Below, one piece after another: positions 2,562 to 43,534 of a stretch of 64,000 nucleotides of DNA. Below the pieces are notes generated by a model. It had not been told where the DNA came from. It saw only the letters and a list, made by a program, of their open reading frames with translations, and did not search any database. The stretch is from Candidatus Saccharimonadota bacterium (GTDB lineage Bacteria; Patescibacteriota; Saccharimonadia; Saccharimonadales; UBA10212). The stretch spans positions 152-64,151 of the forward strand of contig JAICWR010000002.1 of assembly GCA_025934715.1 (NCBI GenBank), written 5' to 3'. Position numbers and translations under genes: made by a program. How positions within the stretch are numbered: position 1 is the stretch's first letter; every line of letters begins with the position of its first letter.

Positions 2562-3272
2562 CTATTGGTTAGTGGTATTAGTCGTGCCCGTGGAATTATC
2601 TGTGCCACTGGTCGTATTCGCGCCTGTGCCGGCGCCTTTTAGGGACTTTATTAAATCAACCAGCGCCGAGCGATAGGCTTTGAGCTTATCGCGCGTATCC
2701 TTAACAGCTGTTTGAAATGTAGCGACACTGTCGGCCACTGTTTGGGAAGTGCAGTCTATACTGCTCGCATCAAGCGCCCTTAGCGCATCAATGCTTGTCT
2801 GGGCATTGGCGGAGGCGGTGTCAACATTTGCTTTCAGCGTGGCGTAGTCACTAACATTCAGCTGCTTGTTCGTGTAGAATTGCTGGACCCTTTGATAAAT
2901 TTTGTTGAAAACCGCTTTGTGGTTGGTGGCAAATCGGACCGCATTTGATTCCCTGGTTTCCAAATTCGCCTTTCGGGCTTCACAGGCCCGCTGGCGGTGC
3001 TGCTCGGTCTGTTTCTGGTGGCTAGCACGGGCTAGTTGCAGGTTTTCTTTGGCCGTTTCGCGGAATTGTTCCGTCAGATCGTTCGTTTCAGGCGAGGTTG
3101 AGATGGTGGCCGTGTTATTACTGGTGTCATCAGCTATTTGGGAATTGTCCGACGAACCAGATGAGTTATTACTGCCCCCACCGTGCTCAGCGGCGGCCGG
3201 CAAAACCATGGCGCCTCCGGTGAATAACATTACCACGGCCAGACTTAGTATGAATCTTCTTATGTTACGCAT
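2562..3272 (-). CDS. Secreted hypothetical protein (signal peptide, low-complexity Ser/Thr/Asn ends, coiled central part)
   Basis: N-terminal signal peptide (MRNIRRFILSLAVVMLFTGGAMVLPAAA); no recognisable catalytic motif. Confidence 0.5.
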   Translation of the reverse strand: MRNIRRFILSLAVVMLFTGGAMVLPAAAEHGGGSNNSSGSSDNSQIADDTSNNTATISTSPETNDLTEQFRETAKENLQLARASHQKQTEQHRQRACEARKANLETRESNAVRFATNHKAVFNKIYQRVQQFYTNKQLNVSDYATLKANVDTASANAQTSIDALRALDASSIDCTSQTVADSVATFQTAVKDTRDKLKAYRSALVDLIKSLKGAGTGANTTSGTDNSTGTTNTTNQ

Positions 3273-30611: not shown

Positions 30612-30688
30612 TGGTACGCCCGGAAGGATTCGAACCTACGACCTCCTGTTCCGAAGACAGGCGCTCTGATCCGCTGAGCTACGGGCGC
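30612..30688 (-). tRNA. tRNA-Arg (anticodon TCG)
   Basis: Reverse complement GCGCCCGTAGCTCAGCGGATCAGAGCGCCTGTCTTCGGAACAGGAGGTCGTAGGTTCGAATCCTTCCGGGCGTACCA; anticodon loop CTTCGGA. Confidence 0.8.
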
Positions 30689-30689
30689 A

Positions 30690-30766
30690 TGGTACGCGTG
30701 GAGGGATTTGAACCCCCGGCCTTTGGTACCGGAAACCAACGCTCTATCCAGCTGAGCTACACGCGC
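30690..30766 (-). tRNA. tRNA-Arg (anticodon CCG)
   Basis: Reverse complement GCGCGTGTAGCTCAGCTGGATAGAGCGTTGGTTTCCGGTACCAAAGGCCGGGGGTTCAAATCCCTCCACGCGTACCA; anticodon loop TTCCGGT. Confidence 0.8.
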
Positions 30767-30795
30767 TTAACAGAGGTCATTATATCAGTTTTTGC

Positions 30796-37713: not shown

Positions 37714-37916
37714 GGATATTACTCCTTTAATTAATTTGCCGCGCAACAGGAAGTGAAACAACCAACAGAAAAATCTATTGGTCGAGTTCCTCCAGTTACT
37801 CGTTAGCTGTATATTACTATATTTATGCTTAATTGTAAAGTATATTTTATAGTAGAAACGTTTATGTTTATTTGCAAGTAAGGGAAGGTTTATTTTCTGA
37901 TATAATTACCCCTGTT

Positions 37917-39373: not shown

Positions 39374-40282
39374 TTAGATCAATTTGCCATAGACGACAGT
39401 GTTGTCGCTGTAACGCATAGTTTGGGGATTGAAGGTGCCGCCGCAAGTTAAGAGCCGGATGCCCGCATAGTTGATATTACCGTAGACCTCCTGGGTGGGG
39501 AAGCTGTCGCGCGGCAGTTGTTTTATACCCATCACTGCGAACCTAGCGGTTGTGCCGTCCTCGCGCGTGACATCAATTTCACTACCGGTTTTAAGCTCGT
39601 GCAGCCGCCAAAAAATGGCCGGGGCCGTCCAGGTGTCTAAGTGCCCGGCAATAATAGCCGGGCCGATTTCGCCGGGAGTGGGCCCGTATTTATACCAGCC
39701 GGGTATGCTGGGCCACGATGGCATCTCGATAGAACCGTCCGGGTATCGGCCCAAAGGTATAAGTTCCGAATTGAGCTGTATGGACGGAATAATAAGTCGC
39801 TCTGGAACAGACCGGGGCATAGATTTGGGCGGTTGGGGGCGTACCGCGGCTGAGGCCACAGCTTTATGAATTGATATATCATGCACGGCGCCCTTAGAAG
39901 TTGAAAAATGATAATAAAAGCCAAGATTAAGGCCGAGAGCCAGTAGCACCGGGAAAGCCCACCGTAAAACCCGGCGAGGATGGTGGACTTCTTCTTTTTT
40001 GGCGTACCGGCGCCAGGTTTGCTTGGGAACCTTTGCAACGGCGATTTCTTTGAAGGAAAAAATCCTAAACCTAAATACCTTCTGCCAATAGCGCTGGGAA
40101 CGCAGTTCCGGCTTGGTCCGGAAACGCCTTAATGTGATTTGAAGTTTTGATGAAAGGCTTAAAGGCAGCCTAATCTGCTTGGCCCTGGGTCGTTTCAGCC
40201 GCTGGCTGGGGCGCCAGGAACCGGACAATCCCTGTTTTGCGGATCGCCCGGTTAATTTAAGCTGACGCTGTGAGCCCGGCAT
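39374..40282 (-). CDS. Sortase-family transpeptidase with a long basic N-terminal region
   Basis: 'IAGH' His motif and 'IRLLTCGG' Cys motif; TM 'VLRWAFPVLLALGLNLGFYYHF'; the true start is uncertain (about 130 Arg/Lys-rich residues precede the TM). Confidence 0.65.
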   Translation of the reverse strand: MPGSQRQLKLTGRSAKQGLSGSWRPSQRLKRPRAKQIRLPLSLSSKLQITLRRFRTKPELRSQRYWQKVFRFRIFSFKEIAVAKVPKQTWRRYAKKEEVHHPRRVLRWAFPVLLALGLNLGFYYHFSTSKGAVHDISIHKAVASAAVRPQPPKSMPRSVPERLIIPSIQLNSELIPLGRYPDGSIEMPSWPSIPGWYKYGPTPGEIGPAIIAGHLDTWTAPAIFWRLHELKTGSEIDVTREDGTTARFAVMGIKQLPRDSFPTQEVYGNINYAGIRLLTCGGTFNPQTMRYSDNTVVYGKLI

Positions 40283-40899: not shown

Positions 40900-41111
40900 A
40901 AATCCTCCTTCCGGACATTGAGGCCCCTAAAACCTCTGCCCATTACCCCACAGTTACCACGCCAGCATAAACTAGAAATCCGCTTTAATCTGTGATTTTA
41001 GTTACTAATTTTGCCAGGTGTTCAAATTGTGTTAAAGGGAGCAAGTTAGACCTAAATGATAACGAATTCGATTTAAAAAATAGAACGCTTATGCCTTATA
41101 ATTAACTTTAA

Positions 41112-41351
41112 ATGCATGGCGACAGGCTTTTTGATGTGACTGAATATGACCCCAATATTTCAATCGCCGACAGATTGCAAAGTGTCCATGAGGTTTCACG
41201 GGCGACGGTAGCGGAAAATGCCGCACGGGAGATAAAACGCATGCCGCCATACTTACAAGACAAACTTGCTGCTTTGGCGGCCGGCTCAACAATTGTCATC
41301 CATGGCGTTGAATTTAATGCCCGCGAAATTAATCCTTTAGCGAGTCGCTAG
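41112..41351 (+). CDS. Small hypothetical protein (79 aa)
   Basis: ORF only; no motif. Confidence 0.35.
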   Translation: MHGDRLFDVTEYDPNISIADRLQSVHEVSRATVAENAAREIKRMPPYLQDKLAALAAGSTIVIHGVEFNAREINPLASR

Positions 41352-41395
41352 TTTTATAGTCTGGTTCCTAGTATAAGCACCCCTGTTACGGCAAG

Positions 41396-41437
41396 AATGG
41401 CTCAGTTGGTTAGAGCATCGGGTTGTGGTTTTATAGA
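41396..41437 (+). pseudogene. tRNA-His-like 5'-half fragment (D-arm plus anticodon stem-loop GTG), no 3' half
   Basis: ...GGCTCAGTTGGTTAGAGCATCGGGTTGTGGT then divergence; shares the 12-nt TCGGGTTGTGGT anticodon stem-loop with the intact tRNA-His at 41963. Confidence 0.55.
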
Positions 41438-41483
41438 AACCCATCTCCTTTATATTTTAGCTCTAGGTTGATAGACTTATGAC

Positions 41484-41978
41484 ATGCCCACAGTTATTTG
41501 CCGTTCCTGTGGCAGACAGTTTTATGCTAAACCGAGTTGGCTTAAAGCTGGCTGGGGGAAATACTGCTCGCTAAAGTGTAGTCATGAGGCGCAGAGGAAT
41601 GGTGCTCGTTTCCGGTGCGATGTTTGCGGCGGAGAGATTTATAGGAGCCAGAAGAATCAAAAGCGTTCTGTAAGCGGGAAGTTTTTCTGTAGCAAGTCCT
41701 GTCAAACCAAGTGGCGTAACTCAACGTATATTGGTTCCAGCCATGCAAATTGGAGAAACGGTGAATACTCTTACCGAGATGCCCTTCGACGAACTGAACT
41801 TCCGCCTGTATGCAAGCGGTGCAGGAGCGACGATTTCAGAGTCTTAATCGCTCATCATAAAGATAGAAATCGCCGAAATAATTCCCTTAACAACTTGATT
41901 TGGTTGTGCCACAATTGTCATCACTTGGTACATCATTATAAAAATGAGGCCAAGGACTTCGTGGTGCCTGTAGCTTAG
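41484..41978 (+). mobile_element. HNH endonuclease gene (Cys-rich zinc-ribbon N-terminus) between the tRNA-His half fragment and intact tRNA-His
   Basis: 164-aa ORF: CRSCG..C..C, CDVCGG, C..C pairs and an HNH motif 'AHHKDRNRRNNSLNNLIWLCHNCHHLVHH'. The last 5 codons overlap the 5' end of tRNA-His. Confidence 0.7.
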
Positions 41979-42040
41979 CTGGTCAAAGCGTCGGGTTGTG
42001 GTCCCGAAGATCGAGAGTTCAAATCTCTTCAGGCACCCCA
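41963..42040 (+). tRNA. tRNA-His (anticodon GTG) with encoded G-1
   Basis: G-GTGCCTGTAGCTTAGCTGGTCAAAGCGTCGGGTTGTGGTCCCGAAGATCGAGAGTTCAAATCTCTTCAGGCACCCCA; G-1 opposite the C73 discriminator; anticodon loop TTGTGGT. Confidence 0.85.
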
Positions 42041-42046
42041 GGATTT

Positions 42047-42583
42047 ATGAACAGAAGTATTAACCCTTTTTCGTGGCCGGTCGGCCACAGCAGCCGGCAG
42101 CCACGCAGCCAAGAAGAACACAATAAGTTCATCTTACAGACGGTCCAGCCCGGCCTGGCCGGGCTGATGGACGGCTCCGTATCAACCTTGGCGCCGATTT
42201 TTGCGGTGGCGTTCGCCACACACCGGCCTCATTATGCCTTTGTCACAGGTATCGCCGCGGCGGTCGGCGCCGGCATCAGCATGGCGTTCGCCGAAGCTTT
42301 AAGCGACACCGGGGAGCTGACAGGCCGCGGCCGCCCCCTCCGCCGCGGCGTGATAATCGGCGCCATGACTTTCATCGGCGGTATCTTTCACACGCTGCCC
42401 TTTTTATTCAGCAACATCAACCATGCCTTAATCGTCGCCTACCTGGTGGTGGGCGTTGAGCTAATGGCTATCGCCTACATCCGCTATAAATACTTCGCGA
42501 TGCGTTTTTGGCTGTCAATTTTACAAGTGGTGGTTGGCGGCGGCCTGGTGTTTGCCGCCGGGGTTCTTATCGGATCCGGTTAA
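42047..42583 (+). CDS. VIT1/CCC1-family (DUF125) membrane protein
   Basis: 'LAGLMDGSVSTLAPIFAVAFAT' and a Gly-rich TM pattern typical of PF01988. Start placed at the first Met after tRNA-His. Confidence 0.55.
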   Translation: MNRSINPFSWPVGHSSRQPRSQEEHNKFILQTVQPGLAGLMDGSVSTLAPIFAVAFATHRPHYAFVTGIAAAVGAGISMAFAEALSDTGELTGRGRPLRRGVIIGAMTFIGGIFHTLPFLFSNINHALIVAYLVVGVELMAIAYIRYKYFAMRFWLSILQVVVGGGLVFAAGVLIGSG

Positions 42584-43227
42584 GTTTGGAATAAACGCAA
42601 AATCACAATCGTCAAAATCGGGATCGCTAAATTATCGAGGCCGAAAAGCGATATGCTCTCCACGGCGGTCAGCAGCGGCGGTAAAAGTAGCAGCAGGTAA
42701 TAGTAGCTTTGGAATTGGAACACGTTGTGGGCAGCCAGCAGGCCGGCGGTCAAAATCTCCACCGATGCAATCCAAAATATCATCGAGCCAATGATCGTCT
42801 TTTTATACCCGAACACCCTATATTCCCAGCGTTTACCAATCGATATTCCAGCCACAGCCGCCAGGCCGTCGGCCAAAGCCACCTCCAAAATCGCCACGGC
42901 GAAAAATATTTTGTTGTGGGTGATAATGGCCGATATGAAAATGGCTAAAGCCAGGAAGATGTCGCCGTAAGTCACCCGGTGGACAAAACCGTTATACTTC
43001 AGAAGGTTCCGGAAACGGCCAACAATCATAACCAGCAGCATCAATATGCTCAGAACCTGGATGGCCCGCCAGCTGATCAGCCAAGGCCAGAAAGCGATGA
43101 AGCTTCCGGCGGTGATGTGGAAAAATTTACGGTGGTACTCGCCCCTTAGAACTTTGTGTTTAGCCAGTGAATCCGCGATCAGGAGAAGCACAGCCAATCC
43201 GGCAATACAGGCAATAACCGTAAGCAT
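42580..43227 (-). CDS. CTP-dependent polyprenol/dolichol kinase or CdsA-like cytidylyltransferase family membrane protein
   Basis: Six to seven TM helices; 'EVALADGLAAVAGISIGKRW' resembles the PF01148 C-terminal signature. Confidence 0.5.
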   Translation of the reverse strand: MLTVIACIAGLAVLLLIADSLAKHKVLRGEYHRKFFHITAGSFIAFWPWLISWRAIQVLSILMLLVMIVGRFRNLLKYNGFVHRVTYGDIFLALAIFISAIITHNKIFFAVAILEVALADGLAAVAGISIGKRWEYRVFGYKKTIIGSMIFWIASVEILTAGLLAAHNVFQFQSYYYLLLLLPPLLTAVESISLFGLDNLAIPILTIVILRLFQT

Positions 43228-43460: not shown

Positions 43461-43534
43461 CCAACAGGGGTAATTATATCAGAGATATCTCTGTTTTTTG
43501 ATATAATCCCTCTGAGCCCAACTGGAGAAAAGAC

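Follow-up and report, generated by a model that had tools for sequence, protein, structure and literature searches.

Homing endonuclease genes are thought to survive in essential genes only within self-splicing introns or inteins, or otherwise between genes. Group I introns with homing endonuclease genes sit in the anticodon loops of bacterial tRNAs, and integrative elements that insert into tRNA genes, such as prophages and genomic islands, rely on recombinases of the tyrosine or serine type, as a rule duplicate the 3' part of the tRNA gene and span many kilobases. Free-standing endonucleases of T-even phages home without an intron, and one of them, T4 SegB, recognises a conserved tRNA-gene motif and in homing carries neighbouring tRNA genes along, with loss of recipient markers (PMC2330249). 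Here, we describe a locus in a 64,000-nt stretch of contig JAICWR010000002.1 (assembly GCA_025934715.1, a Candidatus Saccharimonadota bacterium), hereafter the window, in which an HNH endonuclease gene lies between the 5' half of one tRNA-His gene and a second, complete tRNA-His gene. The arrangement probably arose when a free-standing HNH cassette of the homing type disrupted the resident tRNA-His gene and brought a replacement of its own. An earlier note on this DNA had already read the locus as an insertion footprint, left by crossover in the anticodon stem-loop or by endonuclease-mediated homing; at the level of sequence, that reading is supported by empty sites in relatives, flanking tRNA halves in other genomes and the foreign class of the complete tRNA.

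The layout of the locus was read over positions 41000-42500 with ARAGORN, the list of open reading frames (ORFs) and Rfam (Table 1). All of the elements previously described from the sequence are present, with small corrections of coordinates. The cassette is approximately 0.6 kb long and consists of a conserved box, a promoter-like region, the HNH gene and the complete tRNA-His. Preceding it is a 40-nt remnant that reads, in order, G-1, acceptor strand GCAAGAA, U8 G9, D-arm GCTC-AGTTGGTTA-GAGC, A26, TCGGG (the 5' strand of the anticodon stem) and loop TTGTGGT, and that stops at position 37/38 in the anticodon loop. A tRNA-His piece with its anticodon region had been placed at 41396-41437; the piece is real, but its limits are those given in Table 1, positions 41430-41437 are not tRNA, and 54 nt, rather than about 45 bp, separate its end (41429) from the ORF. 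The 29-nt D-arm-to-anticodon core of the remnant occurs once in the window, and 0/100 shuffles match it with up to three mismatches. Against the Rfam tRNA model the remnant scores 15.3 bits (E=9.2), which is not significant alone; its significance therefore rests on comparison. Positions 41400-41429 are 96.7% identical (30 nt) to the 5' half of intact tRNA-His genes found in close relatives at empty syntenic sites, and in alignment A2 the remnant falls in the native allele class described below. As the earlier note had stated, the fragment has no 3' half, since TTCTTGCC is found five times in the 64-kb window and none of these adjoins a T-arm. The possibility that it belongs to another complete, non-His tRNA was ruled out with ARAGORN and Rfam.

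The remnant is preceded by TATAAG-CACCCCTGTTAC at a distance typical of tRNA promoters in the window, and the native tRNA promoter has thus been retained. The promoter motif TGATATAAT-TACCCCTGTT, of the form TATAAT plus (t)ACCCCTGTT, stands immediately before the tRNA-Gly gene (37917) and the tRNA-Pro gene (43460, minus strand); close variants precede the tRNA-Arg, tRNA-Glu and tRNA-Lys genes, and the ACCCCTGTT motif is also found upstream of tRNA-His or its remnant in loci L173, L006 and L001. Taken together, these comparisons show a resident gene interrupted within the anticodon loop, with its promoter and 5' half still in place ahead of the cassette. The tRNA genes of the window have in common a compact promoter, in which TGATATAAT is followed by a (T)ACCCCTGTT discriminator ending 1-3 nt before the mature 5' end; such sites lie at 37890-37916, 43461-43490 (minus strand), 30767-30790 (minus strand) and 41372-41389. 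Two tRNA-Arg genes (anticodons TCG and CCG) stand in tandem at 30612-30766 (minus strand), with one base between them.

Table 1. Features of the tRNA-His locus and its neighbourhood, in window coordinates
Feature	Position	Strand	Basis or remarks
Retained promoter of the former native tRNA-His gene	41372-41389	+	-10-like TATAAG (41372-41377) and discriminator CACCCCTGTTAC
5' half of the disrupted native tRNA-His	41390-41429	+	Sequence, shuffles, identity to empty-site genes, native allele class
Cassette 5' region	41430-41483	+	Box, -35-like hexamer, 17-nt spacer, -10-like hexamer, 6 nt to ATG
HNH endonuclease ORF, 164 aa	41484-41978	+	ORF list, phrog_1271, homologues, invariant residues, AF2 model
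Complete tRNA-His(GUG) of the cassette	41963-42040	+	ARAGORN, Rfam; encoded G-1, C73 and CCA
VIT-family gene	42047-42583	+	Pfam VIT1, E=3.6e-14; start 6 nt past the tRNA
Ser/Pro/Gly-rich low-complexity protein, 366 aa	38263-39363	+	Upstream neighbour
302-aa protein	39374-40282	-	Upstream neighbour; homologues beside the cassette in L006 and L008 (36-50% aa)
Gly/Ser-rich protein, 199 aa	40300-40899	-	Upstream neighbour; homologue in empty-site locus L102

The complete tRNA-His reported at the far end of the cassette was recovered by ARAGORN, which places it at 41964-42040 with G-1 at 41963, and scores 68.1 bits against the Rfam tRNA model. The HNH gene does overlap the start of this tRNA, as had been noticed, but the overlap amounts to 16 nt and comprises the last four sense codons and the stop; the stop codon, TAG (41976-41978), occupies positions 13-15 of the tRNA, in the D-loop. 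The complete tRNA has no tRNA-type promoter of its own, the sequence upstream of it being HNH coding sequence only. Alignment A2 splits tRNA-His genes into two allele classes, a native class (GGCGAAYGTAGCTCAG...CGTGGGTTCAAGACCCATCRTTCGCCCCA), to which the window remnant belongs, and a cassette class (GGTGCCTGTAGCTTAG...CGAGAGTTCAATTCTCTTCAGGCACCCCA), to which the complete tRNA belongs. The cassette allele class GGTGCCTGTAGCTTAG...CAGGCACCCCA is common to the window, L001, L002, L006 and L049, and this distinct class, found at other HNH-bearing loci, supports the proposal that the donor carried a different tRNA-His allele. The cassette tRNA of the window differs from the native class in acceptor, D-arm and T-arm and is identical to it in the anticodon stem-loop. 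In the window (41990-42010 compared with 41417-41429) and in L049, a native-like anticodon stem-loop and variable loop are set within a cassette-type tRNA-His, a pattern that could be the one expected of a gene-conversion tract around the break, or ordinary variation. Many HNH-linked tRNA-His genes have non-canonical T-loops without the usual TTC (T54-Psi55-C56): TGCAAAT is found in the cassette tRNA-His of L027, L028, L044, L050, L054, L061, L063, L065 and L066, and loops such as ATCGTCC and GCAGCA in that of L011, L020, L025, L026, L036, L041, L018, L070 and L084.

A metagenome scan with the D-arm-to-anticodon pattern of the remnant returned 120 loci, none of which has an HNH gene. By a simple stem-complementarity test 115 of the 120 are intact tRNA-His genes, and four are truncated at the end of a contig; in the one 'fragment' (L088) the anticodon-stem 3' strand is 1 nt shorter, and the gene is otherwise full length. 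Several of these loci have the acceptor GGCGAAYGT or GGCGAGCTT, as in Saccharibacteria remnants. Eight empty loci are syntenic with the window (L102, L173, L099, L181, L137, L176, L200 and L201), and all of them have what the earlier note had proposed to look for, an uninterrupted tRNA-His without HNH, of the same class as the fragment and at the matching site beside VIT and/or p215. Synteny is most extensive in L102, with the order p199, tRNA-His, VIT (71% amino acid identity), p215 (64%) and RNase Y (90%), and in L173, with VIT, p215 and RNase Y (90% amino acid identity to the window). Across the eight loci the identity between the window remnant and the intact tRNA, in its 5' half, is 82-97%, with the higher values over the 30-nt core; the complete tRNA of the window is 79-87% identical to the empty-site tRNA where the alignment is confined to the tRNA. 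VIT starts 6-9 nt past the tRNA 3' end in empty and filled sites alike, which shows that the incoming tRNA replaced the native 3' half exactly, so that a cassette tRNA of a different class now stands in its place directly before VIT. Filled sites at the syntenic locus are those of the window, L006, L001 and L002, and what these genomes share is the arrangement with the HNH gene itself, not one with a conserved non-HNH gene in its position. By p215 identity, the window is nearer to the empty locus L102 (64%) than to the filled loci L006, L001 and L002 (47-51%); the distribution is therefore patchy, and related genomes are polymorphic for presence and absence at one homologous site, as expected of homing.

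The cassette is not confined to this locus. The scan for HNH relatives used one genome per species, and 80 loci were kept; arrangement counts were taken over 86 loci, an ATG-anchored profile over 78 unique loci and box counts over 81. HNH relatives were detected in the genomes of 321 species, almost all of them with a Patescibacteria label, and the labels of the 80 kept loci span most lineages of that group (Saccharibacteria, Paceibacterota, Nomura-, Kaiser-, Uhr-, Jorgensen-, Woese- and Levybacteria, and others). The few bins with other labels are probably mislabelled; for example, L085 ('Gammaproteobacteria') and the Woesebacteria locus L079 scarcely differ over the stretches compared, with a one-base difference in the tRNA. 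ARAGORN found tRNA-His(GUG) directly 3' of the HNH ORF in 84/86 loci, a count that rises to 85/86 with L018, where the tRNA is present but was missed by the program; L015 ends at a contig edge. The HNH gene abuts or overlaps tRNA-His in 85/86 loci: in 53 the ORF ends on a stop codon at one and the same place within the D-loop of the tRNA (a 14-nt overlap by the script's measure), and in 28 it ends 3-50 nt before the tRNA. Three homologue contexts have the same layout as the window, namely a tRNA-His 5' half, approximately 55 nt, the HNH ORF and a complete tRNA-His overlapping the end of the ORF. As judged from these comparisons, the same cassette sits at tRNA-His loci across the Patescibacteria, and close relatives have an unbroken native gene without HNH. 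L003/L004 and L005 encode an identical HNH protein (P0107) and have identical upstream genes (RNR and MscL); downstream of tRNA-His they have Prim-Pol in L003/L004 and, in L005, a serine recombinase (Resolvase) that abuts the cassette, and the 3' side of these tRNA-His genes appears also to be a hotspot for other mobile DNA.

In many of these loci a recognisable tRNA-His 5' half stops at ...TTGTGG, 53-58 nt ahead of the ATG; elsewhere the remnant is reduced to a vestige next to the anticodon, or is gone altogether. TGTGG stands at this fixed position in 29/78 unique loci, versus 2/78 in a control region. The remnants differ from the complete tRNA downstream and are of different tRNA-His types in different lineages, and one complete-tRNA type (e.g. 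GGAGRYATTRGTGTAG...GGGTGCAAATCCC) is paired with different remnants among loci; the complete tRNA thus appears to travel with HNH, and the remnant to be the host's own. A T-arm and acceptor 3' strand lie just past the cassette tRNA in L012, L031, L020, L053 and L065. Both halves are kept in three of these, with complementary acceptor strands (GTGGTCG / CGACCAC in L053, GTGTCTA / TAGACAT in L031 and, with one mismatch, GTGGCTG / CAGACAC in L012), and in L020 and L065 the 3' piece is kept beside a lost or decayed 5' half. The complementary flanking halves therefore place the cassette inside a tRNA-His gene split in the anticodon loop.

These data bear on the idea of an ancient, domesticated HNH-tRNA-His pair, inherited only vertically, in which HNH works for the host (e.g. 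in expressing tRNA-His) and the fragment acts as a conserved leader or regulatory sequence and is no insertion scar. Such a pair would explain why the window, L006, L001 and L002 share one syntenic locus, where HNH is about as conserved (62-66% identity) as host proteins are, and it would be consistent with purifying selection on HNH and with the preferential retention of the box and the anticodon-proximal part of the remnant even where the remainder has decayed. Nevertheless, we consider it unlikely, because loss of the cassette cannot regenerate an intact native allele, and the closer relatives L102 and L173 have just such an allele, without HNH, at the same site. Remnants of different native allele types by lineage, the matching 3' halves that flank the cassette and its presence in only 321 species genomes also argue against domestication.

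Alternatively, the cassette might have moved by means other than its own nuclease, either as the remnant of a larger integrative element targeting tRNA-His or through simple transformation or homologous recombination; HNH would then be a passenger or have some other task, for instance in defence. Integration into tRNA genes is a classic phenomenon, and the different neighbours of the identical HNH genes in L003/L004 and L005 point to a variable region. However, neither an integrase nor a transposase was found inside the conserved unit in any of the 86 loci; in the window, HNH is the sole ORF between the remnant and the new tRNA, and no integrase accompanied by an att-type direct repeat of the tRNA 3' segment was found. 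Moreover, integrases normally duplicate the 3' part of a tRNA, whereas a 5' half is left here, HNH and tRNA meet at exactly the same nucleotide in 53 loci, and without exception the break falls in the anticodon loop, all of which makes this explanation rather improbable. Finally, a working split or intron-containing tRNA-His with the 5' fragment as one of its halves (a group I intron with an HNH ORF, or halves joined in trans as in Nanoarchaeum) can practically be dismissed: although position 37/38 is the canonical site of tRNA introns and splits, and CCACAA just past the break can pair with the anticodon loop, in the manner of a P1 helix, in some loci, this pairing is absent in the window, a search of 40900-42600 against Rfam at E<=10 returned the complete tRNA, the weak fragment match and noise but no group I intron or other family, no ribozyme core lies between two tRNA exons, the remnant acceptor GCAAGAA and the 3' strand of the downstream tRNA (CAGGCAC) are not complementary, that tRNA is complete by itself, the window holds no 3' half, remnants have decayed to vestiges in many loci, and relatives have the intact gene.

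The 164-aa ORF had been identified from Cys-rich zinc ribbons and an HNH motif, and the family comparison bears this out. No Pfam or NCBIfam model reaches its cutoff: the Pfam match is weak (HNH_3, E=0.03), and NCBIfam matches only at the HNH region of IscB. In PHROGs, however, the protein matches phrog_1271, HNH endonuclease (E=4e-20). A protein search found 744 homologous clusters of approximately 164 aa with up to 66% identity, and those with names are labelled Saccharibacteria, Kaiserbacteria or Patescibacteria; an exact-protein lookup of the window protein returned no record. Two N-terminal CxxC...CSxxC zinc modules, common to 17 diverse homologues, are followed by a C-terminal Cys4 HNH domain. 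Residues C110, C113, H124, H125, N137, C142, H143, N144, C145, H146 and H150 are invariant across the same 17 proteins, and the family thus has the H-N-H residues and the flanking CxxC pairs that define the zinc-bound subtype of the HNH (beta-beta-alpha-Me) superfamily. An AF2 model (pLDDT 79) shows a string of small domains, the C-terminal one HNH-like, with strands at 121-125 and 138-142 followed by a helix at 143-151. Foldseek found no significant global match for this model in the Protein Data Bank (PDB), only local resemblances to zinc-finger DNA binders and HNH proteins; Gme HNH and McrA were matched at E about 0.7, the local match to Gme HNH having a probability of 0.77, which is not significant. 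A PDB sequence profile search likewise gave weak matches. A collection of viral contigs contained no full-length relative and two partial HNH-motif matches only, and a phage origin of the cassette was set aside. In L083, the homologue has an in-frame TGA (3067-3069) at codon 23, a nearly invariant Gly, and the remaining ORF is intact. This suggests that the host of L083 uses genetic code 25 (UGA = Gly, as in Gracilibacteria/Absconditabacteria) and that the cassette thus occurs in recoded lineages as well.

The 5' region of the cassette is conserved across the family. In the window, the box is TATAGAAAC (41432-41440), a [CT]AGAA variant of the ATCCACA(A/G) box, and the hexamers downstream, -35-like TTTATA (41449-41454) and -10-like TAGACT (41472-41477), are weak. 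A simple sigma-70 scan of the window did not pick up this promoter, and we call it because of its family-wide positional conservation. The ATG-anchored information profile shows a box (tat..ca.aa) at -54 to -44, TTt.c at -35 to -31 and TA.AaT at -12 to -7. The box is typically ATCCACA(A/G) or the [CT]AGAA variant, with CCACA in the box position in 35/81 loci (1.4% background) and [CT]AGAA in 29/81 (5.9% background), and in 11 loci it forms an inverted repeat with the anticodon TGTGG. A DnaA box was considered and dropped as the main explanation, as the strict TTWTNCACA is present in only 4/81 loci; a more fitting description is that the box repeats the anticodon loop in inverted orientation and has a [CT]AGAA variant. 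The nuclease may use it as an operator, a form of autorepression for which I-TevI is a known example.

We infer nuclease activity and a homing step from these observations, and propose the following sequence of events. The HNH protein would cut uninterrupted tRNA-His genes in or near the anticodon loop, and repair of the break from a cassette-bearing copy would install box, promoter, HNH and tRNA by intron-less homing, with homology supplied by the tRNA sequence and, between related genomes, by flanking genes too. The cassette tRNA would make the insertion harmless and then, because the native tRNA-His gene is destroyed, indispensable. The leftover halves would decay, giving the range from intact-looking remnants to vestiges. 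The new tRNA would be cut out by RNase P from a long precursor whose transcription starts at the cassette promoter, at the retained native promoter or at both. Processing would also limit the nuclease, given that the tRNA contains the HNH stop codon: cleavage at G-1 would strip the stop codon, and an HNH message without a stop would keep the level of nuclease low.

Several points weigh against homing by an HNH cassette. The cassette tRNA of the window has the same anticodon stem-loop as the native gene, which leaves its escape from cutting unexplained, and the native 3' half is wholly absent there, so that the right-hand junction cannot be reconstructed in the window. Cleavage of tRNA-His DNA by HNH, and the site of that cleavage, are deduced from sequence, and ordinary homologous recombination of flanking DNA could move the cassette between relatives without a nuclease. 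Between syntenic filled loci, HNH has diverged (62-66% amino acid identity) about as much as host proteins have, so that vertical inheritance, with transfer only now and then, could account for much of the distribution seen today. When the halves of L053, L012, L031, L051, L065 and L020 were rejoined in silico, ARAGORN returned an ambiguous tRNA or none, because the 3' strand of the anticodon stem has decayed; the excision result was not used as evidence.

More tentatively, and with rather less confidence than we place in the cassette itself, we suggest that these loci may represent an undescribed class of selfish, self-complementing, intron-less cassettes, pervasive in the Candidate Phyla Radiation, that invade the anticodon loop and carry the only working copy of the tRNA. 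In such a class the native promoter would drive the tRNA, the box would be the operator, and the stop codon within the tRNA would couple nuclease production inversely to processing. A full-text literature search found no description of an HNH/tRNA-His replacement cassette; a Mycobacterium paper reports HNH genes within horizontally acquired tRNA arrays, in an arrangement that differs from the cassette. If the proposal is correct, homing genes have a third route to survival, which is to break a gene and bring the spare, leaving a host that cannot lose the element. It would also explain the recurring annotation of an 'HNH endonuclease' beside tRNA-His in hundreds of Patescibacteria genomes, and would point to a compact nuclease, made of two zinc modules and an HNH domain, with a natural target of about 30-40 bp. 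For annotators, such loci contain tRNA pseudogene halves, and the cassette may serve as a marker for horizontal exchange among hard-to-culture bacteria.

The cassette resembles several known systems in part. Like integrative elements, it is inserted into a tRNA gene whose function is restored by carried sequence; unlike them, it is only approximately 0.6 kb long, has no recombinase, leaves a 5' half and carries the whole tRNA. With group I introns it has in common the anticodon-loop target, a nuclease ORF within the insert and the preservation of gene function, but it has no detectable ribozyme, and function is kept by a second, complete tRNA instead of by splicing. Its protein shares the Cys4-type motif CxxC ... 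HH ... N ... CHNCH ... H with small HNH nucleases (phrog_1271, the Gme HNH nicking endonuclease, McrA and the HNH domains of IscB/Cas9), whereas only the cassette family has the two N-terminal CxxC...(F/Y)CSxxC modules and is obligately linked to tRNA-His. The closest functional analogue appears to be intron-less homing by the free-standing endonucleases of T-even phages, and by SegB especially; the Mob proteins of T4, to which the earlier note had pointed, offer an analogy only, SegB being the closer one. In both SegB and the cassette, the nuclease gene lies outside any intron or intein and among tRNA genes, and nuclease and adjacent tRNA appear to travel together and to displace the recipient allele. 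SegB is a GIY-YIG enzyme that inserts between genes of a phage genome. In contrast, the cassette, whose cleavage activity is presumed, has an HNH protein, resides in cellular chromosomes and occupies a site inside the anticodon loop of a tRNA gene, where it leaves the 5' half, and sometimes the 3' half, as a scar and supplies a full replacement tRNA whose 5' end overlaps the nuclease ORF.

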